A DNA stretch of 64,000 nt, from positions 15,720 to 79,719 of the forward strand of contig NIVC01003733.1 of NCBI GenBank assembly GCA_002269645.1, given 5' to 3'. Both the position numbers and the translations under genes were made by a program. This document shows positions 30,558-58,755 of this stretch, in pieces. The notes beneath the pieces were generated by a model. It saw nothing but the letters and a program-made list of their open reading frames with translations. It made no database searches and had not been told where the DNA came from. The first letter of the stretch is position 1, and every line of letters starts with the position of its first letter. This DNA is from Macrostomum lignano. Its lineage: Eukaryota.

Positions 30558-39078
<8,521 letters not shown>

Positions 39079-39399
39079 GGTGAACAGCTGCAGACTTAAA
39101 CTCAGTAGCCGCATAGCCTAGAATTTTATATAAGACAAGCTAAACTTTGTTGACCTTGGCATTCTATTGGCCCAATGAGGCAGTCGGAATTCTCCATATG
39201 ATGCCCAGCAGGAGCTGGCAATATTGGTTCAATACACTGGAGAGTATCTGATTCGCTTGTGCAGTTGTAAGGAGGAGGGATTAACTCCTGCGGCAGATTT
39301 TCAAAAAGAAGTTCAAAATACTACTATCTATAGTAGCATTCTTAGAAATCTGTCCTTGAAAAATACAGAAAGTTGGCAAAAATAGTGGATACACAAGAG

Positions 39400-41009: not shown

Positions 41010-41466
41010 TATAAGAGATTGATAGAGAGTTTAAGAGATTGATAGAGTGTTTGAGAGATTGATAGAGAGTTTGAGAGATTGATAGAGAGTTTGAGAGATT
41101 GATAGAGAGTTTGAGAGATTGATAGAGAGTTTGAGAGATTGATAGAGAGTTTGAGAGATTGATAGAGAGTTCGAGAGATTGATAGAGAGTTTGAGAGATT
41201 GATAGAGAGTTCGAGAGATTTAAAGAGAGTTTGAGAGATTGATAGAGAGTTTGAGAGATTGATAGAGAGTTTGAGAGATTGATAGAGAGTTCGAGAGATT
41301 GATAGAGAGTTCGAGAGATTGATAGAGAGTTTGAGAGATTGATAGAGAGTTCGAGAGATTGATAGAGAGTTTGAGAGATTGATAGAGAGTTCGAGAGATT
41401 TAAAGAGAGTGTGAGATATTGATAGAGAGTTTGAGAGATTGATAGAGTTTGAGAGATTGATAGAGC
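41010..41466. repeat. 20-bp minisatellite (GAGAGATTGATAGAGAGTTT)
   Basis: Direct reading. Confidence 0.92.
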
Positions 41467-41903
41467 GTTATACCATACAAAATCACCAGCAATCCATGGC
41501 CAGCAACCAAACTAATTTTAATGTTGTTAAGGTAAAATTATAAATTTTTCGCTTCATTTTCGCTCGTCTTCACTTCGCTCAACTCGCTCCGCTCATCCTC
41601 GTTTCATTTCGGTAAAAATGTATAATTTTACCTTAACAACATCAAAATTACCTTTTGTTTCTGAAATTTCGCTCTCGTCGTTCGCTTGTGGTTTGCTGGT
41701 GATTTTGTATGCTTCCAATACTTCCAACACTTCCAACACTTCTAACACTTCCAAACAATTCCAACACTTCCAACACTTCAAACACTTCTAATACTTCCAA
41801 CACAACCAACACCAACTAACTGATAATAAACCTCACCCGCCCGTGCCGCAGGCACGCGGACGAAGTCCGACCGCCCCGAAGGGGCTTGGGGCACAGAAAA
41901 GCA

Positions 41904-42210
41904 TGATTTTTCTGTTAGTAAAAATAAACCGAGTTTACAACTTTTCAGTAAGTGATACTTCGAAACTGTTGCTAAAAATGCTGAGATAATAAAACAGCAT
42001 ATATTGAATGGAATAATCGATGAGGTTTTTTTAAAATACAACAACGGCGAGGAACTAAAACTTTATCCACTAGAGTTAGACGGTTTATATGATTTAGAAC
42101 AGGAGGGAGAGCTAATTTTTCAACTTGGTGATTATTTAAATTCAGACGATTGGGAGGTTCGTTCAACGGATTCTGAGTCAACAAATAGTTCGTTTGAAAC
42201 TAGTGAATGA
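41904..42210 (+). pseudogene. Viral-type small acidic ORF, paralog A (one frameshift)
   Basis: FSVSDTS/ETVAKNAEIIKQHILNGIIDEVFLKYNNGEELKLYPLELDGL aligns with paralog B. Confidence 0.6.
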
Positions 42211-42284
42211 AGTGAATAGAGAATGAAAGTGAAATTTTTATGTAAAAAAATGGAATTAGGCAGCAGACCCCACTTTTCAATAAC

Positions 42285-43534
42285 CAGTGTTGGGCACTTC
42301 CGTTACCGAGTAACTTGTAAATGGTAACGCAAGTTACTTTTTCGTAAAGCGTTCCTTACGCAAGTTACTTTCCTATTTTGGTAACGGAGTAACGGTAAGT
42401 TACTCAAATTTCGGAAGTCCGTTACAGTTACTTTGCAACAATCGCAATATTTAAATTTAAAACTGATATGCTTAGCTATTACTCCAGTTGTCACATTTTT
42501 AGCATTTTTCATTCCTAAATTCAAAACTAAGTGAATAATATCATACGGTATTACGCTGTAATTAATAAAGAAATACTTGAAACATGTTTTTACTTTGTTA
42601 TTTTCGGTAAAATATTTTTGCTTTTCGTTTTTAAGTTAATAAAAATATTTTGTTTAGTTCTTAGAAACAAACAACCAAAGAAAGAAATTCATCTGTAGTC
42701 TCCACAAATCCACTCAGTGATCGACGTAGCCAGGAATTTTAATTGGGGGGGGGCGGGTTGGCCTGGCTGGCCATGCCTCATGCCATTGCCACTTTTAGCG
42801 CCGCAGGCACTCATTTAAGCGCCGCAAGCACTCATTTAAGCGCCGCAGGCACTCATTTAAGCGCCGCAGGCACTCAATCGCCTCATGGTTTTTGGTACCC
42901 GCCACGCCCAACCCCACCCCCCCAGGTGGGGTGTCTTGCAGGTGGGGTGAAGTTGCCGCCCCAACGATTGTTAAGGCGGCCTCCCTGGCTACACCACTAA
43001 AGTCCACTGGCACTGCACTGCACTGCACAATAATTTAATATTATGATAAATTGAAAATAAATAAAAAGACTAGTAAAGCAGACTATAGAGTGGAGTAAAG
43101 CCAGGTACTTATTACGAGCGATGTATTATCAAGGACAACTGAAGTTACGTTAAGTTGTCCTTGTGTATTATAACTTATAATGTTATTAAAAATTAAATTG
43201 CGTTTTGCATTTAACGTTTCTGACCTTCAGCTTCTCTTCTTTTACGGAAAGGGCCTAAAGTGATTAAAATTTAATACAGTTACTGAAATTAATATTGTTT
43301 TATTCTTCCTCCTGGCTTTCGCGATCATTTGTGCTGTTCCAGCGCATTTGCAATGTTAAAAAAGCAGAAAATTTTGTTAATAACATAGGTAACGGAAGTA
43401 AGTAACGGAAGTAACTTAAAAGTTACCGGGTTTTTGTATAAAGTTACTAGGCTAACGTAAGTTACTTTTTAAAAAGTGGTAACTTAAGTTACAGTAACGC
43501 AAGTTACTTTTTTTGAGTAACTTGCCCAACACTG
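42285..43534. mobile_element. Non-autonomous hAT-superfamily DNA transposon, 1250 bp
   Basis: 12-bp perfect TIR CAGTGTTGGGCA / TGCCCAACACTG, perfect 8-bp TSD TCAATAAC (42277-42284 and 43535-43542), many subterminal GTAAC/GTTAC repeats, no transposase. Confidence 0.93.
42720..42998. mobile_element. GC-rich MITE-like element nested inside the hAT element
   Basis: Degenerate inverted ends (GTAGCCAGG / CCTGGCTAC), four 21-bp GCGCCGCAGGCACTCATTTAA repeats at 42798-42880, sharp GC contrast with flanks; TSD unclear. Confidence 0.55.
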
Positions 43535-43807
43535 TCAATAACTGAATCAACTCAAACAATATTTAATGCACTCGATTCAATAAAAAAACTTATAAAGGAT
43601 GAAATACTCGATGAAGTATATATATACAACCAAATAAAAAGATATATCCACTTGAAATTGGAGAATTAGATTATATTTGGGATAAGGGGGAAGAAAGTCT
43701 TCTTCTAGCACAATGTTTAAACTGTTAAAAATTATAACTAAAAATCACCCCGATGAATTACTATTCAGTGACAAAAACAAATTTATTGCGAAAAATATAA
43801 GTAAAAA

Positions 43808-43975
43808 ATGAACTTAAATTATTCCTACATTGGCAAAGTGCCAATTAAAGATTTTCAAGATAATGTTAGTTTGATAGCAGTTGAACAAGTTACAATAATA
43901 TTTTTAGTTCTAGTATTAATAATAATATTGTTTTTATTTGTTATAATTTTTTTATTACCTTGTTGCCTTAAGTAA
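43808..43975 (+). CDS. Intact 55-aa single-pass membrane micropeptide (below the ORF-track length cutoff)
   Basis: MNLNYSYIGKVPIKDFQDNVSLIAVEQVTIIFLVLVLIIILFLFVIIFLLPCCLK*; long hydrophobic run followed by CC. Confidence 0.45.
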   Translation: MNLNYSYIGKVPIKDFQDNVSLIAVEQVTIIFLVLVLIIILFLFVIIFLLPCCLK

Positions 43976-44706
43976 TTGATTCTTATAAAACGATCCTAAT
44001 ATTTCTTCAAGTCCTATATACTAAAAATGGTCTGTCTGTGTCTATCTATCTATCTATCTATCTATCTATGTGATCGATTAGAGAAAAAATGGCTTAACCG
44101 ATTTTCATGAGACTTGCACTGTTCGATCAGAAATTTTCCCGTGACGGTACATGCATCGTGGCTAAGAAATTGCTCGATGCTAAAGGCATTTCCTATATAC
44201 TAAAAATGGTCTGTCTGTGTCTATCTATCTATCTATCTATCTATCTATGTGATCGATTAGAGAAAAAATGGCTTAACCGATTTTCATGAGACTTGCACTG
44301 TTCGATCAGAAATTTTCCCGTGACGGTACATGCATCGTGGCTAAGAAATTGCTCGATGCTAAAGGCATTAAATATTCGAAAAACATGCTCTTTGCAAAGG
44401 TCAAGCAAACTTTTCAACTTGAAATGCATTGTAAGAATGCTAGAGAAAAAATTGACTGGTTGATTCTGATACTGAAATAGATTGCATCATAACTGAATTG
44501 TAACTCCAACTTGAATTGCGTCACAGTATTGAAAATGCAGTGTGGAAGCGTAGCACCAGACTTGATTTAGATTGTGTAACCATATTGTCAACTTTAATTG
44601 AGACTGATACTGACTTGCCTGGGAAATTGATTATGTCATAACTGCTTCGTGAGTGAGTGTTGAATTATATAAGTGCTACAATTTCACTTATAAATTCGAT
44701 AAGATC

Positions 44707-44763
44707 TAGCCTAGAAGTTAACAGACTGGACTGCTAATGCAGCGACCTGGGTTCGAATCTTAG
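44707..44763 (+). pseudogene. Degenerate tRNA-like sequence (SINE-head or tRNA relic) inside the Helitron
   Basis: A-box-like TAGCCTAGAAGTTAA, imperfect anticodon arm with 7-nt loop CTGCTAA, T-arm CTGGG-TTCGAAT-CTTAG; the acceptor stem does not pair. Confidence 0.4.
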
Positions 44764-44819
44764 TAGTAAATTTTTTTATTAAAAGCTTTTATTAAAAAAA
44801 AAATAAATTAAAGGACTAA

Positions 44820-47530
44820 AGGCGTCATGTAAAAAATCATAGAATAGTCATGCAAAAAATCATAGAAGCGTCATGTAAACAATCATAGAAGCGTCATGTA
44901 AAAAATCATAGAAGCGTCATGTAAACAATCATAGAAGCGTCATGTAAAAAATCATAGAAGCGTCATGTAAAAAATCATAGAAGCGTCATGTAAACAATCA
45001 TTGAAGCGTCATGTAAAAATCATTGAAGCGTCATGTAAAAATCATGGAAGCGTCATAAAAAATCATAGAAGCGTCAAGTAAAAAATCATAGAAGCGTCAT
45101 GTAAACAATCATAGAAGCGTCACGTAAAAAATCATAGAAGCGTGATGTAAAAAATCATAGAAGCGTCATGTAAACAATCATAGAAGTGTCATGTAAAATC
45201 ATAGATGCGTCATGTAAACAATCATAGAAGCGTCATGTAAAAAATCATAGAAGCGTCATGTAAAAAATCATAGAAGCGTCATGTAAACAATCATTGAAGC
45301 GTCATGTAAAAATCATTGAAGCGTCATAAAAAATCATAGAAGCGTCATGTAAAAAATCATAGAAGCGTCATGTAAACAATCATAGAAGTGTCATGTAAAA
45401 AATCGTAGAAGCGTCATGAAAAAATCATAGAAGCGTCATGTAAACAATCATAGAAGTGTCATGTAAAATCATAGATGCGTCATGTAAACAATCATAGAAG
45501 CGTCATGTAAAAATCATAGAAGCGTCATGTAAAAAATCATAGAAGCGTCATGTAAACAATCATTGAAGCGTCATGTAAACAATCATAGAAGCGTCATAAA
45601 AAATCATAGAAGCGTCATGTAAAAAATCATAGAAGCGTCATGTAAACAATCATAGAAGCGTCATGTAAAAAATCGTAGAAGCGTCATGAAAAAATCATAG
45701 AAGCGTCATGTAAACAATCATAGAAGCGTCATGTAAAAAATCATAGAAGCGTCATGTAAAAAATCATAGAAGCGTAATGTAAACAATCATAGACGTGTCA
45801 TGTAAAAATCATAGAAGCGTCATGTAAAAATCATAGAAGCGTCATGTAAACAATCATAGAAGCGTCATGTAAAAATCATAGAAGCGTCATGTAAACAATC
45901 ATTGAAGCGTCATGTAAAAATCATTTAAGCGTCATGTAAAAATCATAGAAGCGTCATGTAAACAATCATAGAAGCGTAATGTAAAAGCAAAGAAGCGTCA
46001 TGTAAAGATCATAGAAGCGTCATGTAAAAAAATCATAGAAGCGTCATGTAAAAAATCATAGAAGCGTCATTTAAAAAATCATAGAAGCGTCATGTAAAAA
46101 TCATGGAAGCGTCATGAAAAAATCATAGAAGCGTAATGTAAAAAATCATAGAAGCGTCATGTAAAAAATCATAGAAGCGTCATGTAAAAAATCATAGAAG
46201 CGTGATGTAAAAAATCATAGAAGCGTCATGTAAACAATCATAGAAGTGTCATGTAAAATCATAGATGCGTCATGTAAACAATCATAGAAGCGTCATGTAA
46301 AAAATCATAGAAGCGTCATGTAAAAAATCATAGAAGCGTCATGTAAACAATCATTGAAGCGTCATGTAAAAATCATTGAAGCGTCATAAAAAATCATAGA
46401 AGCGTCATGTAAAAAATCATAGAAGCGTGATGTAAAAAATCATAGAAGCGTCATGTAAACAATCATAGAAGTGTCATGTAAAATCATAGATGCGTCATGT
46501 AAACAATCATAGAAGCGTCATGTAAAAAATCATAGAAGCGTCATGTAAAAAATCATAGAAGCGTCATGTAAACAATCATTGAAGCGTCATGTAAAAATCA
46601 TTGAAGCGTCATAAAAAATCATAGAAGCGTCATGTAAAAAATCATAGAAGCGTCATGTAAACAATCATAGAAGTGTCATGTAAAAAATCGTAGAAGCGTC
46701 ATGAAAAAATCATAGAAGCGTCATGTAAACAATCATAGAAGCGTCATGTAAAAAATCATAGAAGCGTCATGTAAAAAATCATAGAAGCGTCATGTAAACA
46801 ATCATAGAAGTGTCATGTAAAAATCATAGAAGCGTCATGTAAAAATCATAGAAGCGTCATGTAAACAATCATTGAAGCGTCATGTAAAAATCATAGAAGC
46901 GTCATGTAAACAATCATTGAAGCGTCATGTAAAAATCATTTAAGCGTCATGTAAAAATCATAGAAGCGTCATGTAAACAATCATAGAAGCGTAATGTAAA
47001 AGCAAAGAAGCGTCATGTAAAGATCATAGAAGCGTCATGTAAAAAAATCATAGAAGCGTCATGTAAAAAATCATAGAAGCGTCATGTAAAAAATCATAGA
47101 AGCGTCATGTAAAAATCATGGAAGCGTCATGAAAAAATCATAGAAGCGTAATGTAAAAAATCATAGAAGCGTCAAGTAAAAATCATAGAAGCGTCAAGTA
47201 AAAAATCATAGAAGCGTCATGTAAAAAATCATAGAAGCGTCATGAAAAAATCATTAAAGCGTCATGTAAAAATCATGAAAGCGTCATGTAAAAGGCATAG
47301 AAGCGTCATGAAAAAATCATAGAAGCGTCAAGTAAAAAATCATAGAAGCGTCAAGTAAAAATCATTAAAGCGTCATGTAAAAATCATAGAAGCGTCATGT
47401 AAAAATCATAGAAGCGTCATGTAAAAAATCATAGAAGCGTCATGTAAAAATCATGGAAGCGTCATGAAAAAATCATAGAAGCGTCATTTAAAAAATAAGG
47501 AAGCATCATGGTAGAATAAAAGAAGCGTCA
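44820..47530. repeat. 22-23-bp satellite (AAAAAATCATAGAAGCGTCATGT), ~120 copies, inside the Helitron
   Basis: Direct reading. Confidence 0.95.
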
Positions 47531-48348
47531 TGTCAGACATGAAGGGTTCATGTAAAAATTAAATGCAGCTATAATGCTGTGCTGGGGAGAAAAACAGACG
47601 TAAAGGCTCTCAGAGAATAACTGAGATTACAGGGGGGGGGTTTCTGAGATGTCAAAGCAAAAGCCGGAAGCTACTTCAAAGTTCATGTACTTTACTCAAT
47701 TTTTTTATTGCATTCTTTGTTGGCTCGCCACGGGGTGAGGCGCTGATAGAAGAAGAGTCATGTAAAAAATAAAAGTGGCACTATGTATACATAAAAGAAA
47801 AGTCATGTCGAAGTTAAAAGATTCATTTGGGAATTGCTACGATGTCAAAGCTTGGTGGAAATCGTTATAGTGCTTGATTCTTAAAGAAGGAATCACTAAA
47901 ATGTCAAGGCTTAGGGGAGAAGAATTGCTGAGATTTCAAGACTTTAGGTTGGGTTAAAGTTAGGTTTAGGTCAGGTGTGGGTTGAGGGTTATATTTTATC
48001 GGGTTTCAAGTTTAACAGGGGGTTTTTTAGATGTCAAGGTTTTTTGGGGGCCATCGCTGACATGTCAAGGCTTACGGGGGGAATAGCTGAGATGTCAAGG
48101 CTCACGGGGGTATAAATGAGATTTCAAGGCTAAAGTCAGAAGCTACATGTAGTTTATTGAAAACTTTTTATTACATTATTTGATGCCTCGTCAGGGGAGG
48201 GATCGCTGATAAAAATAAAAAAAGCTTCATGTCGAAGTTAAGAGATTCATTTGGGAATCCCTACGATGTCGAGGCTTGCAGGGAATCGCTATAATGCTGT
48301 AGTAGTGCTATAATGACTCTTAGAGAGAATTACTGAAATTTCAATGCT

Positions 48349-48423
48349 TTAGGGTTAGGGTTAGGGTTAGGGTTAGGTTAGGGTTATGGTTAGGGTTAGG
48401 GTTAGGTTTAGGGTTAGGGTTAG
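48349..48423 (+). repeat. Interstitial telomeric repeat, ~12 imperfect TTAGGG units
   Basis: Direct reading; a more degenerate copy lies at ~47944-47990. Confidence 0.9.
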
Positions 48424-48650
48424 AAGGTTGATTGACAGATATTTTTAGATTTCCAAGGCTTATTGGGGGCATTGCTGAGATGTCAAGGGGGGAAGTTGAT
48501 ATGTTAAAGCTTGTGGGGGGGAATTACTGACATGTCAAGGCTTACAAGGTTTGACAGGAGATTTTTTAAGATTTCAAGGATACATGTAGCTTATTAAAAA
48601 AACGTGTATTGCATTTCTTTGGCTCCCCAACGGGGGGCGTAGATTGCTAG

Positions 48651-48945
48651 TAAAACATCTAATATGGTTAAAATATACTTATACCCTCCGTCGTTCGGCA
48701 TAGCCATTAAATCAGCATACCAAATTTCATTCTTTTTAAAGTCCATGATTTTTCGATAAAATTTAGATTTTCGGTATTCTCTATGAAGATTTTTGCCTCA
48801 TCAGAACTTAACCCACCACCACTTAATACTCGTAACAAACATTCAACACAATTATTTCCATGTTGATTGTAATTAATTCCTAAACCAAATTTAACTTTAG
48901 ATTGCAGAATCTTATTAACGATGCACCGAGTTAATCTTTGGCCAA
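48651..48945 (-). pseudogene. int: Polinton-type rve integrase N-terminal fragment preceded by a PLA2-like-domain C-terminal motif
   Basis: Minus strand reads VNKILQSKVKFGLG...SDEAK/LHREYRKSKFYRKIMDFKKNEIWYADLMAMPNDGGYKYILTILDV. This matches the Polinton integrase pattern LHK..R.KF.RR.V....DE.W.ADL......GYKYLLT.IDVF; first catalytic Asp at 48711-48713. Not listed in the ORF track. Confidence 0.8.
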
Positions 48946-48949
48946 CCGG

Positions 48950-50227
48950 GTTACATGGGTTATATACCAGAAACGATGGAACCGCTCTTACAGCTCCCGA
49001 TATCGCCGATCGTTCAGGTATTGTTATAGAAAATGATTGGTTTTATAAATGTTTTTCCCAAGCGCAACTAAGAATTGATGGAGCCGAGGTTGAGACATCT
49101 AGCAATCCCGAGGAGATTAATGGAGTTTTGAAACATTTAAATTATACCTATTTAACAAAACAGGTTGGTGACAATGTTGGATGGATGCCAGATAAGGGTG
49201 ATGGTGGAGCAATTAATTTCTCTCAAGTACCACCGGCAGCCGGAGCCGATACGGCAGCACTCATTAACTATCTGAATACGAATATAGTTCCAGTTGTAAC
49301 TACTCTAACCAACCCTAAAAACATGAACACCGGATTCATAGATCGTCAGAATAAATTCCCAGTAGCAGTTTTAACCGATGCAGCCGCATATGAGCAGGAC
49401 TTTTAAATCTTCCCATTATTAGGTTTCTTCTCACCAAATCGTGTTTGGAAAGGATTAAGATTTGGTGTACAATTGAAAATATTTGGCGGGTATCTGGGCA
49501 GAATACTTTTTGGAAATTCAACCTCAACCGATTTAGCAGCTAGAATAGTTTCAATTCAATTAGTTTTCCCAACGATTGAGGTAACAGCTCCACTTATCTC
49601 TTATAAACGATCAGTTAATGAAGGATCAGGAAATGTTCTATTTGAATCGTCGGCACTTTATGCGAACTATAAATAAAATCAGGATTCATTCCAGAGGCAA
49701 ATTCTCACATCAAAACGTCGCGTGAGATATATTTTTGCTTGGTTTAAAATCACAAACAGAACTAGCAAAAGAGCTAATGGAGATTTATATTGGATTCAAT
49801 CTGATGCAGTAGCAGTTCAAGCCGCCACCGAAACTGACACCGCAGCCTTAGCAATTACCGCATTTAATCTCCAGAATATTCGCTTGCAGGTTGATGACCA
49901 ATATTATCCTGTAAAGATGCCCTTAATCTAAACATGGCTAATAATGACGTTAATGATTTGATAAAATATTATCAGGATTATGCCAAAAACGAGGTGTATG
50001 CAGTACCACAATATACTCCCACAGAGTTTCTAAACATTCATCCTTTTGGTTTCTAAACATTCATCTAACTGCAAAAAAAAGAAAATGTAGCCAATATTGG
50101 TTTGAATTATATGTTAGAGATTAATAAAACCGGAAATCAGGCGGTTGACGCACATGTTTTGTTTCTCGAGGAGTATTTGTCAATTGCTGGCGCCGATGGA
50201 ACAATTATTCAGGACACCCCGCTGTAG
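48950..50227 (+). pseudogene. Polinton/adintovirus-type major capsid protein (double jelly roll), N-terminally truncated, with two in-frame stops and frameshifts
   Basis: FSQAQLRIDGAEVETSSNP, GW, NTGFIDR, PLLGFF, RYIFAWF, NIRLQVDDQYYP, P.EF.NIHPF motifs in family order. ORFs 48921, 49473 and 49722 share one frame separated by TAA at 49404 and 49674; frameshift near 49925. Confidence 0.8.
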
Positions 50228-50312
50228 GCGGTGCAGGACATAGTCCGTCGCGCCATTGTAAATGTCGCAGTTCTCCGAACGTCGCACCAATGTAAATTTT
50301 TTTTCCTAAAAA

Positions 50313-50519
50313 ATGGTAAAAGCAAAACACAATAAAATATTTCCAAATGATCCCTTTTTATGTTTAGTAATTGGAGGATCAGGTAAAGGCAAAACTCACT
50401 TTGTTTATGACCTATTAACAACCGATGGAATGTTGAATTATAATAATTTAATAATATATACTAATAAACCGCGAATTAAATATTATGAATTTCTTGAGCA
50501 TGGATTAAGACAAAAATAA
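50313..50519 (+). pseudogene. Polinton-type packaging ATPase (A32-like, FtsK-HerA superfamily), N-terminal 68 aa only
   Basis: HNKIFPNDPFLCLVIGGSGKGKTHFVYDLL...LNYNNLIIY with Walker A GxxGxGKT; cut off by the LTR 9 nt after a TAA. Confidence 0.8.
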
Positions 50520-50528
50520 AAAATATAT

Positions 50529-51398
50529 TGTAGTGCATGCGCCCTTGTCAGTTGGCAGGGCGCGTTGCACTTTGGGGCTGGTTGGGGGGGGTTGGCGGGC
50601 GTGGCAGGGTCTGGCCCCGGCCGGGCTTTGCGCGTGCCCCTCCCTAGCCGTGCCCCTGCCCCGTGCTCAGGGCTGGTTGGCTGCGGCCGGGCCAGCTTTG
50701 GCGCGGGTGCAGCCCCTCCCCCCTTAGGCGGGGTTTTGATTGGCTGGGCCGGCGTGGTTTGTTTTGGTGAGCTTAGCCGGTGGGGCCGTCTGCCCCAGGG
50801 TTTGGGTGCTATTTATGGTGCGACTCTGGCTCTTGCCCACCACCTGCGTGCTTTTTGTGTTTTGGTGTGCTCCGAGAGTGCAAGCGCTAGACCTGATAAA
50901 AGAAACAGCAACATTAGCTACTTGGATAAAAGAAACACAATAGCCTAATTGAGAAGAGTCTTGGAGAATTAAGAAGAAGTCGGAAACTGCGCTTGAGACC
51001 TGCGAATAATAAACGGTGAACAGTCATCTGGCCACTGGTAAGCCGCCTGCTGTTTGAGTCCTTTCTTTCCGGGAAGCTTGCTAGGCCGAATTCTTGCCAG
51101 AGCGTCATAACGCCGGAAGACCATATAGCTTCTGTAGTACGGTACCGTTTACCATATATATTGCGTACGCCCTACGGTATAGAGAATAGAAGCACTCGAG
51201 AGTGTCACCACACCTCGAGCCGCAGCGTGAACTCTGAGTGTCACAACACCAGAGGGATCGAATTATTATCGCAGAGCGTCGCCACGCCTGCTCGTCGTAT
51301 TCATAAAAGTACAGACAGAGCGTCACAACGCCTGTTATATCACATATAATATATATTGTACTCGGGACTGGGCACCCAAGCCGACCCGGGTTACAACA
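50529..51398 (+). repeat. 5' LTR (~870 bp)
   Basis: TGTAGT...TTACAACA; direct repeat of 59469-60338. GATAAAAG TATA-like motifs at ~50.9 kb, AATAAA at 51008-51013, CTG|GTAAGC donor at 51038. Confidence 0.95.
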
Positions 51399-51401
51399 AA
51401 T

Positions 51402-51419
51402 TGGCGCCCGAACAGGGAC
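51402..51419 (+). promoter_or_regulatory. Primer-binding site complementary to tRNA-Lys(UUU)
   Basis: TGGCGCCCGAACAGGGAC, the 18-nt Lys3-type PBS, 3 nt after the LTR. Confidence 0.95.
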
Positions 51420-51643
51420 CCTGTCCCCAAAGATTGAAAGTCGGCTCAGTTGCTTTCTATGAAAATTGCTGTCATATTGTGAGCGTTTTTTCTTATTAAA
51501 ACGACTGTTGCTTATCGCTTGCGGCTATTGCCCTACCGCAAAAGACATTGATCACGGTGACAGACAACTGATTGGTTATCAGAGATCGATAGCTATCACC
51601 ACCTCAGAGTAAAGAGTAGCAACGGTATTCAGTGACTTCGGCC

Positions 51644-52564
51644 ATGGGTGATCAAGCTATGGACCAACTGATCGATGCGCTGGCTGCGCGCCTCAGAGCC
51701 AACGCCGACCGAGCAGCGCCACGACTCTCGAAGCCGCCCAAGTACATACCAACGATGAATTTCAGCCTATGGCTGCAGAGTTTCAACGAGTACTGCGAGG
51801 CTGTCGGTATAGAAGAAGAAGCCAGGCGGCCGCACCTGATCGGCCTACTCGACCTCACAACAGCCTACGCTGCCGTTGATAAGCTGGACTTGGCAGACGA
51901 CATCGAGTACGGGGAATTCACGGATGCACTACTGGCGCGGTTCACCATGAACAGAACAGCCCAGGACTACCGTTTTGAATTATCGAATCGAGATCAGCTA
52001 GACAAGGAGTCTGTGGAGACCTACGGGGACGAGCTGCTGGAGTTGGTGCGCAATGCCTTCCCCACCGCGGATGCCGACACCAGGACAGAGCTGGCGAAAG
52101 ACAGATTTCTAAAAGGCGTTCGAGTAACCGACACTGTCCGAGAAAGACTGTACCTGCAGCAGCCGGCCAACCTCACCGATGCCATTCGAACAGTAAGACA
52201 ACTTGAAGCAGCCCAGAAGGCGTCTTCGACCCAGTCCAAAGCCAGACCCAGGGCTGGGCTGAATGCCTTTGCCACCGAAACGTCGACAGGTGACACCGGC
52301 AAAGACGAGGAGCTACGCCAACTGCGTCAAAAAGTAAAGGAAATGGAAGAAAAGATCCGACGGATGGAGCAGATGCAGCAGGGCCAGCAGGAGCCGCCCG
52401 AACCCGGCCTTCAAGACAAGCAACAATCCAAGCAGGCGGCTCCGTCCAGCTCGAAGCAGCGTAGCGGTGTCAAGTGCTACAACTGCGGGGAGATAGGCCA
52501 TCTCTCATTCCAGTGCCCAAAGCCGGGAAAAGGCAAGAGGGGCCCACCAGCTGGAGGCAAGTGA
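51644..52564 (+). CDS. gag: Gag with CCHC zinc knuckle
   Basis: ATG in GCCATGG context; capsid-like helical region; CYNCGEIGHLSFQC. Confidence 0.92.
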   Translation: MGDQAMDQLIDALAARLRANADRAAPRLSKPPKYIPTMNFSLWLQSFNEYCEAVGIEEEARRPHLIGLLDLTTAYAAVDKLDLADDIEYGEFTDALLARFTMNRTAQDYRFELSNRDQLDKESVETYGDELLELVRNAFPTADADTRTELAKDRFLKGVRVTDTVRERLYLQQPANLTDAIRTVRQLEAAQKASSTQSKARPRAGLNAFATETSTGDTGKDEELRQLRQKVKEMEEKIRRMEQMQQGQQEPPEPGLQDKQQSKQAAPSSSKQRSGVKCYNCGEIGHLSFQCPKPGKGKRGPPAGGK

Positions 52565-52572
52565 GCCCCTGC
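52525..52572 (+). promoter_or_regulatory. -1 programmed ribosomal frameshift signal (gag-pol)
   Basis: Slippery heptamer G GGA AAA (52525-52531) in the gag frame, 6-nt spacer, then hairpin AGGGG(G)C-C-CAC / GTG-A-GCCCCT; the -1 frame is the open pol frame. Confidence 0.75.
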
Positions 52573-55500
52573 AATTCGTCAGCCTCCGAACAAGCCGTCA
52601 TCTCATCTCATCATCATCAAACGCCCGGTACCGCATCTCATCAGCCTCCAGTGTCCGGTACTGCGCCTCATCAGAATCCAGTGTCCGGTACTGCGCCTCA
52701 TCAGCATCCAGTGTCCGGTACCGCGCTTCATCAGCCTCCAGTGTCCGGTACTGCGTCTCGTCAGCCTCCAGTGTCCGGTACAGTACCTCATCAGCATCCA
52801 GTGTCCGGTACTGCGGCTCATCAGCATCCAGTGTCCGATACTGCGCCTCATCAGCATCCAGTGTCCGGTACAGCGTCTCATCAGCCTCCAGTGTCCGGTA
52901 CTGCGTCTCATCAGCATCCAGTGTCCGGTACTGCGCCTCATCAGCATCCAGTGTCCGGTACAGCGTCTCATCAGCCTCCAGTGTCCGGTACTGCGTCTCA
53001 TCAGCATCCAGTGTTCGGTACAGTACCTCATCAGCATCCAGTGTCCGGTACTGCGCCTCATCAGCATCCAGTGTCCGGTACTGCGCCTCATCAGCATCCA
53101 GTGTCCGGTACAGCGTCTCATCAGCCTCCAGTGTCCGGTACTGCGTCTCATCAGCCTCCAGTGTCCGGTACAGTATCTCATCAGCATCCAGTGTCCGGTA
53201 CTGCGTCTCATCAGCCTCCAGTGTCCGGTACAGTATCTCATCAGCATCCAGTGTCCGGTACTGCGTCTCATCAGCCTCCAGTGTCCGGTACTGCGTCTCA
53301 TCAGCATCTAGTGTCCGGTACAGTGCCTCATCAGCCCCAGCGTCCGGTACTGCACCTCACCATCAACTAGCCGGTTTTGCACAGTCGCAGCGCCCAATCA
53401 CCGTCAACGCACCTCAGTCAATTCAAATCAATCCTGCGTCGATATATGTTACGGCCTCAATCGCAGGGCGGAGGGTGAACGCGCTAGTGGACTCGGGAGC
53501 TTCCTGCACCATTATCTCACGGGAAGCTTACCAAAGTATGCCGAAACAGAGCGTCAGAGATTTGGCCGGTGCTGAAGGCTACGTTAGCTTAGCAAACGGC
53601 AGCCCGATCGAAATCGAGAGGACAGTCCTGTTGCGACTGTCAATCGCTGATAAAGTAATAGATACTCCAGCCTTGGTAGTCAGCGGAGTGAAGTACCAAC
53701 TGGTATTGGGATCCGACTTCTGCAGGGACAACAGTTGCGTCATCGACTACAAGAGAGCTGTCTTTTCAGTGCAGGACTCTGCAATCCCGTTCCGATGGCA
53801 AGCTGAGCGCCCGATCGTTTGCAGAATTTTGGCGACAAGGTCCAGCACAATACCGCCAGGTCATCAAGCAGTGCTGTCAGCAAGGCTGGAGAGCAAAGGA
53901 CGACGGAACAGAGGGTGTGTCGGTCTAACTGAGAATCTCGGGGCGAACGATTTGGCAGCTGGCCGCTGGCTTGCTAAGGCCTTAGTGATCCCAAATAGCG
54001 GCAGCCGTCTGCCGACTCGACTCATCAATATCACGGAGGAGCCAGTCAGAATTCGCCAAGGTTGTACGCTCGGGTGGTTCTGCCCCCTAGAATCCACCGA
54101 ACCGTTGAACACCATCAAGCTCTTAGCCGTAGAGTCAGGAGACGATCCACAGGAAGAGCCGAAGTTCCAAGGCAGCGACAGCCCTTCGGAAGCAGACTTG
54201 CTACCAAACTCGTACGGCGACTGTGGACTGTCGACGAAAGAAGACGAAGAATTTAGAATCCTTGTCCGGAGTTACGGCGATGTGTTCACGACCAAGCAGA
54301 CTTCAAGCAAGTTAACTACCGTGGTGGAGCATGAAATTAACACCGAGAATGCGCGCCCAATCAAGATCCCACCGCGTCGTCTGCCTCCCCACTTACAGCC
54401 AGAAGTAGATCGTCAAGTCAACGAGTTGCTGGAAAAGGGGCAGATCGAAGAAGCACAGTCACCATGGTGCTTTCCTTTGGTGTGCGTAAAGAAGAAATCA
54501 GGGGAAATGAGGATGTGCGTCGATTATCGGAAGTTGAATGAGGTCACCGTCAAGGATGCAGTGCCGATGCCGAGGGTCGATGATGCGCTGGAGGCAGTAC
54601 ACGGCGCCAAGATCTTCTCGACAATGGACCTTCACAGCGGGTTTTGGCAAGTAGGGGTGAGACCTCAGGATCAGGACAAGACGGCGTTTGCAGTGCCGCA
54701 TCGCGGACAATTTCGATGGAAGGTTATGCCGTTCGGCTTAGTGAACAGCCCAGCAACATTCACCAGGTTGATGGCAGCCGTTTTGGACAAGCAGATGTGG
54801 AAAACCTGTCTCGTCTACATCGACGATCTACTGGTTTGGTCAACCGACGTGGATGAACACCTGAGAAGACTGGAGGAAATATTCAGCAAGTTGCGGCAAG
54901 CAAATTTGTGCCTGAAGCCCCAGAAGTGTCACTTTTTGCAAAAGCAAGTGAAATTTCTCGGTCACACGCTGTCGGCTGCTGGCATCAGTACCGATGAGGA
55001 GAAAGTTCAAGAAGTGAAGAACTGGCCAACACCGCGATCCTCGACGGAGCTGCATTCATTCTTGGGCCTGTGTGGCTATTACAGAAAGTTTATTAAAGAT
55101 TTCGCCGCAATAGCAGCGCCTCTAACTCGGTTGACAACAAAAGACGCAAAGTTTGAATGGAAAACGGAACAGCAGCTGGCGTTCGAAACATTGAAGGAAC
55201 GAATGACAAGTTCAGAGGTTATGGCTCATCCGGATTTCTCCCCGGATGCCGGAGAGTTTATCCTCGATACTGATGGCAGTTCGAAGATGGGCATAGGAGC
55301 GGTACTTTCTCAAGTCCAGCCAGATGGAGCAGAACGAGTGATCGCCTATGGGTCCAAGACACTAAATCAAGCCGAACGCAACTATTGTACGACTCGTTTA
55401 GAACTACTAGCGGTTGTGACTTTCATCATGAAGTTCAGATACTATCTGCTGGAAAAGCGTTCTGTCTGCGAACGGACCACAGCAGCCTGCAATGGTTAAA

Positions 55501-57259
55501 AAACTTCAGTGACGCCGAGGGACAGGTTGCTCGCTGGTTGGAGAAGTTGGCTCCATTTCAGTACCGCATCGTTCACAGACCAGGTCGATCGCATGGCAAC
55601 GCGGACGCAATGTCGAGGAAGCCAGTACGGAGACATTTCGGAGCGGAGACATGCCCGGCATGTGCGCAGCATCCAGAAGGACTAAATGCAGTCGAATTTG
55701 AACGATTCTCAGCCGGCAATCTGGCAAGCGAGCAGGATCAAGACGACGATTTGAGAACAGTAAAGGAAGCGCTTGGCTCAAACCCAGTTCCAGATAAAAG
55801 CGAGACAGCTTGGAGTCCACTGGCTAGAGCCGTCTGGACTCGAAAAGACGACCTGGTGCTGCAAGAGAACGTGCTCCTTGTGAGAAACAAAGACAGGCGC
55901 GATGAGTATCAAATGGTGCTGCCACGAAAGGCATTGGATCGTATCTTGAAAACCCTACACGAGGGAGTGGGAGGTGGCCACATGGGCTTTGCGAAGACAA
56001 AATTTAAAGTGCTTCAGCGCTACTGGCGTCCAGGATTGTCTCGTGCCATTGAAGAATATATTCGCGGTTGTGCCACCTGCTGCAAGTCAAAGCCGGGCAA
56101 GCGAAACCGAGCACCCCTGCAACCGTTGACATTCGCAGCACCATTCGATTGCGTCATGATGGACATTGTCGGGCCGCTACCGCGGAGTAAGGCTGGAAAC
56201 ATTTATCTCCTGACAGTCCAAGATTCGTTTACGAAGTGGCCTGACGCGTACCCGCTTCGCAACCAGAAGGCAAGGACGGTGGCAAGGGCGCTTTTCAATC
56301 GATGGATTAGCCAGCATGGATGTCCGAGTACTTTGCACAGTGACCAAGGAAGGAACTTCGAATCGCAAGTGATGCGCGAAATGTGCAGGATACTCGAGAT
56401 CCGCAAGTCCAGAACCACAGCTTATCATCCGAGCGGAAATGGACAAGTAGAAAACTTCAATAAAAGTTTAAAATCCATCCTCAAGTGCTGCCTAGAGGAC
56501 TCAGGACGAAACGACTGGGAAGAATTCGTCAGCTCTGCGTTAATGGCGTACCGATCAAGCGTGCATCGAGCAACGGGTTATACTCCCCACTACATGGTCT
56601 ATGGCACGGAGATGCGCCTACCGATAGACTTGACTGACCAGCCGCCACAGCCTGTCGATTCGCATGTAAATTTCGTCAAGGAGCTAGAAGACAAATTGCA
56701 GACAGCTCATCGCGCTGCTCGACAGCAGTTGAATACTTATCAGCGGCGACAGAAGGACCAGTACGATAAAAGAACCCGAGGATCCGATATTCAGGAGGGT
56801 GACCATGTCTTCGTCTACAGCCCCGCCCTGAAACCAGACGAAGCCGCAAAGTTTCACGTAAGCTGGCTCGGCCCAGTGAAGGTGCTCGAAAGAAGATCCG
56901 AGGTGCTCTTCAAAGTGGAAAACCCGTCAAATCGTAAAAAGTCGAAGTTCGTCCACTTCAACAACCTCCGGAAGTTCGCTCGACCGGCCGCCCTGGAAAC
57001 ACCAGTTAGGACCGCGGCACCGCCGGAGGTGGTCGACGAGACGGACTCGGAGACAGAGGCGGAATGCGAGACTTGGACTCGGCCTCAACTGATGCCGCCA
57101 CAGGACGCCGAGGAAGTCGCCGAGGTGCTGGAAGAGCAGATGGAGTTGGTTGACGACCCGCAGCCTACTCATAACCCGGTGGAAGCTGCACCTGAGCCTC
57201 GAAGGTCCGGAAGGTTGCGACGGCCGCCGGATCGCTACGGCCAGCCAGTGACATTCTAA
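52525..57259 (+). CDS. pol: Pol polyprotein (repeat linker, protease, RT, RNase H, integrase), broken by two single-base deletions (~53337 and ~55451)
   Basis: LVDSGAS (53484-53504), CVDYRKLN, YIDD (54816-54827), DTDGS RNase H, RTDHSSL, integrase H-H-C-C and DIVGP/DQG/ENFN triad. Confidence 0.93.
52615..53365 (+). repeat. 30-bp in-frame coding tandem repeat, ~24 units, encoding HQ(H/P)PVSGT(A/V)(P/S)
   Basis: CATCAG unit starts every 30 nt from 52639 to 53329. Confidence 0.95.
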
Positions 57260-57682
57260 TGGGTTACTCGTCATCGTGAAGTCTCATCAGTTTCATATGC
57301 GATTATCGTTAAAAGCCAGAAAAATATTTCGCGAATGCGTCATTCATCATAAATACGAGTACTTCATCAATGCATCATTCATCATGAGTACGAGCAGTTC
57401 GCCAATGCGTCATTCAAGAAATTCGTTAATGCGTCATTAAGTCATTTTAATCGCATCTTCATCGAAGTTTTGACGAGAATCAAATTTTGCCTACAAAATC
57501 TATGCATCGGTGGAGGGTATTCGGACTGGCATCCGGTGACAACTCGAATTTGCGCTGGGACTTTACGATGCAGGGTACCGCGGGCCACGGTCCGAGGAGA
57601 TGACGCTCTGGCAAGAGGGGAGCAGGAGTAGAATCTGGAGTCAGGGACAGTGTGTCGCAGGTTTGAGTACGTTGCTTTGCAG

Positions 57683-58630
57683 ATGGATTTGTACGCTGTC
57701 CTCCAAGTCGGACACACAGCCGAACGTGCCGAGATCAGGCGAGTCTATCGACAGCTAGCGCTCTTCTGGCACCCGGACAAGCACCCGGACAAGGAACTCG
57801 CAGGACGCCGTTTCCAAGAAATTGAGACTGCTGGTAGAATTCTATCGTGTCCATATCGCCGAGCGATGTACGACCAGTTGGGCGATAAATCAATCCCGTA
57901 TGACGAGGCTGTAACCTTCGCAATGACGTTCATACCTCCTACTGGTGTAAGAATGCCGGCGGACATCGAAGAGGGAGTACAGCAAAGGCGAGAAGTTGAA
58001 GAAGCTCAGCGCAAGGAAGCTGGTCTCAGGCAGGGGAGACAGGGACAGAGGAACGATTACGAAGCGGATGGCTACATTCTAATCTCGGACGACGATGAGA
58101 GCGAGGAGTCGGATGAGTGTAGCATCGACACAGAAGAAGAAGACGAGTTGCTGGCATCGGATGGCTCCTCCGGAAGTAGTGAGTCAGAAGCTATGGAGAT
58201 CGATGTACCGGAAAGCAAGGAGGTTGTCTCACATCGCGCGTCGGGAGCAATATGGGATGATGAAAAGCTGTCGTTATCGGCAGCTGCGCGTCAGCTCCGC
58301 CATCGTTTGATGAAGCATATTTTGGCTGGACAGTCGGACGGAATCGTGTCAGTGCTCACGGCTATGAGACGGCTGTTTCGAGACTCGCAGCGAGAACCGA
58401 GGAGCGCACTGTCAATGGTCCTGCTGCAGGCGTTGTTCTTCATCCGCAGAGATATCGCTCCGGTAAAGCGTCAGAGAGCAGGCCGCCGTTACTGGTCTAG
58501 GCAGAGTTTTGATTGTTTCGTCCGACAGCTCTGTCACGAGCTCATCCCGCTGTTCGGTTTGCGCCGGCCCGGCAGGCTGCTCGAGGTCCTGAAAAGCTGC
58601 GTCGGTCTCCCTGGACTTCGGGTTCGCTAG
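57683..58630 (+). CDS. ORF3: DnaJ/Hsp40 J-domain protein (315 aa) with acidic/SIM-like tract and unknown helical C-terminal domain
   Basis: MDLYAVLQV...EIRRVYRQLALFWHPDKHP...RRFQEI..A.RILS....RAMYDQLG matches the four-helix J-domain with HPD at 57770-57778; uninterrupted, intronless, inside the LTRs. Confidence 0.9.
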   Translation: MDLYAVLQVGHTAERAEIRRVYRQLALFWHPDKHPDKELAGRRFQEIETAGRILSCPYRRAMYDQLGDKSIPYDEAVTFAMTFIPPTGVRMPADIEEGVQQRREVEEAQRKEAGLRQGRQGQRNDYEADGYILISDDDESEESDECSIDTEEEDELLASDGSSGSSESEAMEIDVPESKEVVSHRASGAIWDDEKLSLSAAARQLRHRLMKHILAGQSDGIVSVLTAMRRLFRDSQREPRSALSMVLLQALFFIRRDIAPVKRQRAGRRYWSRQSFDCFVRQLCHELIPLFGLRRPGRLLEVLKSCVGLPGLRVR

Positions 58631-58755
58631 GGTGCCCAGTTCCGATTCATACTGTATTTTCTGCTTACTTGTATGTATGTTGTTACGCTCGTACTGTATG
58701 GGTTTATTTGCATGCTAGTGGGGTCAAGCTTCCTGGGGGAATGGCTCAGCAGCTG

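Follow-up and report, generated by a model that had tools for sequence, protein, structure and literature searches.

A 64,000-nt stretch of the Macrostomum lignano genome (assembly GCA_002269645.1, contig NIVC01003733.1, positions 15,720 to 79,719; hereafter the window) very probably contains the left third of a decayed copy of a high-copy Polinton family, one whose two polymerase classes each come with their own type of terminal hairpin, likely a matching replication origin. A first-pass annotation, made from the sequence letters, had proposed a hidden Polinton- or adintovirus-like virus at 41474-50528. That this is a Polinton relic we regard as close to certain. Taken by itself, the window copy is an ordinary fossil, and the Polinton lineage to which it belongs is new; we read it here together with its sister copies elsewhere in the genome.

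Hairpin ends and polymerase classes

Members of the family have the size and termini of Polintons. A capsid search of the genome returned 151 matches, a lower bound with 150 of 236 candidates scored, and by hand count about 60 of the 150 listed matches fall within open frames 490 aa or longer. Contigs from three sequencing runs, presumed to be RNA, and from one untyped run cover the family, which speaks neither for nor against expression. Comparison of 10 end pairs yielded five elements with both ends; these measure 17.1-19.1 kb and carry terminal inverted repeats (TIRs) of 320-380 bp with AGTAGT ends. A 6-bp target-site duplication (TSD) flanks four of the five and also the window insertion, and all copies seen are integrated. 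These are the characters (TIRs, AGTAGT ends, 6-bp TSD, 13-25 kb) by which Polintons are defined in PMC8097293 and 10.1101/2023.08.22.554363.

The ends are predicted to form 240-310-nt hairpins whose arms appear to change together. An AGTAGT terminus is present at 32 of 38 left ends examined and missing from 6. In all 32 of these AGTAGT ends the first 40 bases pair with an inverted copy 237-314 nt inside, with at least 27 terminal pairs in 31 ends and 19 in one truncated call. Positions 41470-41720 of the window fold at -47.3 kcal/mol (z -9.8, 0 of 200 shuffles). Among ends of type A, outer arms agree with their own inner arm at 0.90 and with those of other copies at 0.755 (13 distinct pairs, permutation p 5e-5). 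The left and right TIRs of the window insertion, which are of type B, differ at a site that is mirrored inside each hairpin.

Motif inspection divides the polymerases into two classes, about 22% identical in their best local alignment. One is PF03175-type, scoring 68 bits against PF03175 in a sister copy; the other carries an endonuclease VII/HNH insert and has PolB motifs but no PF03175 match. One class is 46% identical to Lottia Polintons and up to 50% identical to Lottia gigantea proteins, the next named matches after one of 95% labelled Macrostomum lignano. Between the right TIR and the polymerase lies a conserved 328-aa open reading frame (ORF; L041:6125-7108) with a weak adenovirus pX-like match (E 1.4e-4).

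Capsid genes appear to have been shuffled between end and polymerase types, and end type tracks polymerase class. Type A ends occur with the HNH polymerase (14/14), type B with the PF03175-type (8/8) and type C with the HNH polymerase (1/1), so that for the two main end types the class matches in 22 of 22 copies. The survey covered 39 copies, 12 of them without a polymerase call and 4 with an untyped end. The rule also predicted beforehand, from its type-B end, a PF03175-type polymerase for the window insertion, whose displaced part (see below) carries a frameshifted gene of that type. On a capsid DNA tree that kept all of its 37 rows, the end/polymerase label changes 8 times, with at least 5 changes forced by starred branches; the capsid-end pairing of one copy, C926, is uncertain. 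A single clade for the B/PF03175 label is rejected (approximately unbiased test, p-AU 1.8e-72); the rejection holds with the 8 rows typed for both traits as well as with the 12 that carry a label from at least one.

A comparison of two elements locates the exchanged parts. C506 (type B) and C1776 (type A) are 91-96% identical up to the start of the polymerase ORF, again from its stop, and across the TIR's inner 60 bp. They are unlike only in the outer 280 nt of the ends, in exactly the polymerase ORF and in part of a repetitive fibre-like gene. The two genes between the right end and the polymerase are 96% identical between C506 and C1776, compared with 86% between two type-B copies.

Proposed origin recognition and rival readings

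We moderately favour a functional matching of hairpin and polymerase, as the sequence comparisons suggest. Its strictest form, a lock and key in which each polymerase class would recognise only its own hairpin, so that ends and polymerase would act as one unit across 17 kb while the rest recombines, we offer tentatively and lean slightly against. Intact members likely function as other Polintons do. Their rve integrase would insert both AGTAGT ends and make the 6-bp duplication, pPolB would replicate the element through strand displacement primed by protein, and the predicted particles would be built from capsid, penton, protease and ATPase. On the displaced single strand, each end would fold into its own 240-310-nt hairpin and rebuild a local duplex origin. 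From what is known of protein-primed replicons, this origin would be read by the terminal-protein domain of the matching polymerase; a terminal-protein domain lies in pPolB (PMC11161782). Molecules with a mismatched end and polymerase would copy poorly, and therefore both ends and the polymerase ORF would stay together and the genes between them recombine freely. Selection against mismatch would keep the hairpin arms alike.

Several observations weigh against functional matching. Arm covariation falls short of significance in types B (5 pairs, p 0.06) and C (3 pairs, p 0.17), and because the copies are related and some are identical (haplotype duplicates), the p-values overstate independence. 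The label on the capsid tree is weakly clustered, 29-33 of 500 shuffles being as low, which fits shuffling and also mis-assembly, and the end-to-polymerase phase comes from one assembly. C506 is the one two-ended element of the five that has no TSD, and it could be a chimera. The two nematode Polinton polymerase classes have TIRs described as highly conserved (10.1101/2023.08.22.554363), so matched ends are no general need. Finally, the penton and protease identities are not firmly established.

A passive match is the strongest competitor, although we consider it unlikely. Two ancestral backbones may exchange homologous genes by gene conversion while non-homologous parts stay unconverted and a copy of one TIR replaces the other, so that functional recognition would play no part; some of the shuffling may come from assembly chimeras. 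What stays together is indeed what lacks homology between the types, and the missing TSD of C506 suits this account. However, mismatches would be expected from single crossovers, or from random chimeras, falling between end and polymerase, and 0 of 22 copies show one, even though the intervals on either side of the polymerase are shuffled. Moreover, the four TSD-bounded elements and the TSD-bounded window insertion obey the rule.

The hairpins might instead self-prime DNA synthesis from a folded 3' end, as in parvoviruses or poxviruses, rather than serve as protein-priming origins. This is improbable. In type A the inner arm does mirror the terminus down to its final base, which would let a 3' end pair flush, and a similar model has been proposed for the 52-nt palindromes of protist virophages as well as Polinton-like viruses (PLVs; 10.64898/2026.07.28.741278). 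Type B ends, those of the window insertion included, leave the last 8-10 bases unmirrored, however, and the asymmetric stem has one orientation in all type A ends, with no flip/flop. Nor was a Rep or resolvase found among the 24 sister-copy ORFs scanned.

Polinton replication has so far been modelled mostly from gene content. With its two polymerases and two matched, covarying hairpin ends, the family opens origin recognition to direct tests on short DNA substrates using purified domains, and its host, a laboratory flatworm, has many intact-looking capsid genes of the family. The family also shows what a polymerase swap may require. The lock-and-key reading, if true, would offer the first sequence-level handle on origin recognition by Polinton polymerases.

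Gene content and the decayed copy in the window

The capsid is divergent in sequence and predicted to be canonical in fold. An intact sister capsid has no double-jelly-roll match in Pfam and no PDB sequence match. Its three relatives at 41-49% identity are the only ones above 40% among 5.8 billion clusters, and 73 cluster representatives match at E up to 0.001. A structural check of the kind suggested along with the first-pass annotation came out in its favour: the model of this protein, built from a 57-sequence alignment (predicted local distance difference test, pLDDT, 86.5), indicates a double jelly roll, with mavirus, iridovirus and Sputnik capsids as best PDB matches in Foldseek (E 1e-16 to 2e-14) and further matches to adintovirus, MELD and virophage models. 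Two Ala-rich loops, with gap fractions of 0.4-0.6 and 0.8-0.9 against distant relatives and common to the three nearest ones, are lineage-wide insertions, much as the annotation had supposed for the surface loops of a divergent capsid.

The family is an undescribed lineage inside a known kind (Polintons, Eupolintoviridae-like), not a new family. The annotation's "undescribed viral family" was overstated: one polymerase class has many ordinary relatives, and of the 47 capsid relatives scanned (out of 74), 31 pass the cut-off for PF21738, the Polinton-type double jelly roll, with 5 below it and 11 without a match. A virus family outside the Polintons is accordingly a poor prospect. It would account for a capsid with no Pfam double-jelly-roll match and so few close relatives, and for the absence of capsid-related loci from the IMG/VR and JGI contig scans. 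Against it stand the gene set, size, ends and TSD, all canonical and in support of the Polinton/adintovirus identity first proposed, the PF21738 matches and a polymerase close to those of known animal Polintons.

Matches of the other genes in sister copies vary in strength. The integrase matches rve at E 1.9e-7 (31.7 bits, slightly below the 32.6 cut-off), the ATPase matches Pox_A32 at 29.9 bits (above the cut-off), and a candidate PLA2X gene, of a kind assigned to the alpha-class virion module (PMC8502044) and located upstream of the integrase domain, matches PF08398 below the cut-off (E 0.011). In a protease-like protein, His and Asp are invariant in 13 of 13 sequences and Gln and Cys present in at least 90%. 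Pfam assigns it no protease family; adenain chains are the top 3 of its 4 PDB matches, but weak ones (E 0.5-0.7). It has 12 relatives at 39-69% identity, and for two of them the longest contig is as long as that of a capsid relative, which hints at a wider undescribed lineage. A penton-like gene sits in the expected place and scores 0.97 to viral clusters in Atlas; its single-sequence fold without an alignment has a pLDDT of only 32.6.

Some copies carry additional features. Group I introns (RF00028) occur in the PLA2 gene of 2 of 11 loci (L022:3550-3853; L023:8142-8475; L024:75-572 region). An Eco47II-like nuclease ORF (E 0.0012) lies close to the intron-bearing PLA2 genes, in a region deleted from the window copy. 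The C1063 copy (L035:5859-8000, minus strand) has three RING-finger ORFs upstream of the capsid module.

The window retains the following parts of the insertion and its surroundings, from left to right.

41014-41469, no strand: 20-bp tandem array, host DNA and insertion target; ends in the 6-bp target duplication AGCGTT, which is repeated beyond the right end
41470-41925, plus: left TIR, type B, outermost bases lost; hairpin at 41474-41711
41930-42210, plus: small conserved ORF, about 104 aa long in sister copies, with its frame disrupted close to the start; 91% identical to sister, no Pfam match
42250-43666, plus: second small ORF, split by the next feature; weak paralogue of the first small ORF (35% over 31 aa, E 4e-5)
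42285-43534, no strand: non-viral insert that we take to be hAT-like, with 12-bp terminal inverted repeats and an 8-bp target duplication; absent from contig C1075
43808-43972, plus: small broken ORF with a hydrophobic C-terminal stretch; 65% identical to sister
43960-44011, minus: integrase C-terminal scrap, from a six-frame reading and sister comparison
44012-48650, plus: non-viral insert, presumably Helitron-like by its TC...CTAG hallmarks (5' TC, 3' CTAG, subterminal hairpin), mostly a 23-bp tandem array; absent from C1075
48651-48946, minus: PLA2X tail (KxKFGLG) and rve integrase N-terminal part; deletions took the catalytic part of PLA2, the intron site and the integrase core
48960-50227, plus: double-jelly-roll major capsid pseudogene, residues 70-490, joined to the integrase piece over a 2.1-kb deletion
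50313-50528, plus: A32-like packaging ATPase, residues 1-70, cut by a long terminal repeat (LTR) element; sister and Pox_A32 matches
50529-60338, plus: Ty3/gypsy LTR retrotransposon in the ATPase gene; proximal inversion breakpoint

The pieces named in the first-pass annotation are all present. The integrase piece on the minus strand (48946-48657) covers residues 88-182 of a 400-aa sister protein at 68-85% identity; the catalytic core between it and the C-terminal scrap is deleted, and the fragment alone matches Pfam rve at E 0.035. The ATPase piece (50313-50522) is 90% identical to its sister over residues 1-70 and matches Pox_A32 at E 0.0011. At 48960-50224, the capsid piece spans residues 70-490 of a 490-aa sister protein at 75-77% identity. 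The annotation's "four frames/stops" proved too few: one premature stop lies near 49404, and the frame is broken near 49594, 49677, 49912, 50055 and 50073. Differences from nine sister copies fall mostly at third positions, so divergence built up under selection and decay came afterwards. The KxKFGLG motif (about 48890), cited as a PLA2 signature, is real and belongs to the tail that follows the PLA2 domain, whose catalytic part is deleted here. The small orphan ORFs are conserved in sister copies. As for the whole of 41474-50528 being virus, element pieces are there, but only 3,166 of the 9,055 bases (about 3.2 of 9 kb) are viral, 42285-43534 and 44012-48650 being later insertions.

The fragments have a single origin, as had been assumed. 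Relatives in unrelated public assemblies match the window in 6 of 6 tested (E 1e-106 to 1e-11), so the matches are not due to chance. Although each window fragment alone falls below its Pfam cut-off, unrelated pieces or chance matches are already refuted, since all fragments keep the order they have in single sister copies, run contiguously in C1075 and lie inside one TSD.

C1075, a contig near-identical to the window's that lacks both small transposon inserts, is probably the other, allelic haplotype, and it shows where the rest of the insertion went. The window's own contig stops where the window stops. In C1075 the right two-thirds lie inverted at 235282-247646, about 5 kb past the LTR, so loss of the right part by deletion is ruled out. 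This displaced part holds the right TIR, the polymerase, the fibre-like, protease-like and penton-like genes and the 3' part of the ATPase, several of them frameshifted, and adjoins a second, opposite-oriented copy of the same gypsy element. Its TIR is 95.8% identical to the window's left TIR over 424 aligned bases, both TIRs abut the same tandem array with the duplication AGCGTT, and the gypsy insertion in the ATPase gene has a short ATAT duplication on either side. All pieces therefore belong to one insertion. Its left third, in the window, was broken by two deletions, point breaks, the two small transposon inserts and the gypsy insertion. One deletion took about 0.6 kb out of the integrase core; the other, of about 2.1 kb, spans the catalytic part of PLA2, two ORFs and the N-terminus of the capsid. 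The junction of the latter occurs in two places only, the window copy and C1075, and a mobile non-autonomous family of the deleted form was rejected on that ground. We infer that the inversion arose by recombination or repair between the two gypsy copies.

Further details concern the junctions and neighbours. An insertion of about 30 bases forming a double hairpin (window about 41857-41890) is found in both TIRs of this insertion and in none of eight sister ends compared. A 189-bp inverted duplication marks the distal inversion breakpoint (window 60343-60532 and L145:1316-1504). The Helitron-like insert (44011/48651) and the integrase deletion junction are no more than about 2 bases apart; C1075 has that junction without the insert. 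The insert contains about 13 TTAGGG repeats at 48349-48423. The gypsy element (50529-60338) has LTRs agreeing at 862 of 868 positions and a primer site that is presumably tRNA-Lys-type. Between its pol and 3' LTR it carries an additional 332-aa ORF (57632-58630), which includes a DnaJ domain (E 6e-18). On the minus strand, exons of a metabotropic-glutamate-receptor-like gene (ANF_receptor) lie at 34700-39117, the first coding exon about 2.3 kb from the element's left end. Also on the minus strand, at about 62790-63180, is a candidate small cysteine-rich gene with no Pfam match in one frame tried. Rfam gave no match in window 40000-61000.

Comparison with known systems

The coupling of hairpin end type to polymerase class is new here. 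The literature search found neither long polymerase-matched hairpins in animal Polintons nor the family itself; Repbase, subscription journals and supplements lay outside its scope, so an earlier listing is possible. Orthopolintovirales insertions are mentioned for Rhabditophora flatworms in 10.1101/2025.04.19.649669, whose supplements may list this family.

The closest kin are the Polintons/Mavericks, or adintoviruses (Eupolintoviridae, Amphintovirales; PMC8502044, PMC12451622, PMC8097293). The flatworm family shares their pPolB, rve integrase, double-jelly-roll capsid and A32 ATPase, a likely penton and adenain protease, a PLA2-like gene, AGTAGT ends, the 6-bp TSD and a length of 17-19 kb. 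It differs in a capsid too divergent for PF21738, two extra loops, two polymerase classes within one family and TIRs that are long self-complementary hairpins; the words "palindrome" and "hairpin" are absent from the text of PMC8097293. Exchange of polymerase and virion modules has been published for adintoviruses (PMC8502044), whose PolB is characterised there by an OTU domain at the N-terminus.

Nematode Polintons offer the nearest parallel in their polymerases. Their pPolB1 and pPolB2 are likewise two distant classes, of which one bears an HNH-type insertion; the elements that carry them are otherwise near-identical, and their other genes are interspersed on trees, as here (10.1101/2023.08.22.554363). 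Nematode TIRs are described as highly conserved across the classes, whereas the outer 280 nt of both flatworm ends are class-specific.

Protist elements supply the parallel in the ends. In Halocafeteria virophages and PLVs, palindromic termini correlate with replication gene type and a role for hairpins is proposed, as here (10.64898/2026.07.28.741278). Those palindromes are 52 nt long, in a protist host and mostly in non-pPolB elements, whereas the flatworm hairpins span 240-310 nt, in an animal host, and both classes are pPolB. In an end-module turnover model, PLVs also replace ends and replication genes as a unit while keeping the morphogenetic module (PMC11296320), again as here. In PLVs, however, helicase or recombinase modules beside the TIR replace pPolB; in the flatworm family one pPolB replaces another, and the end is separated from the polymerase by shared genes that take up 1.5 kb.

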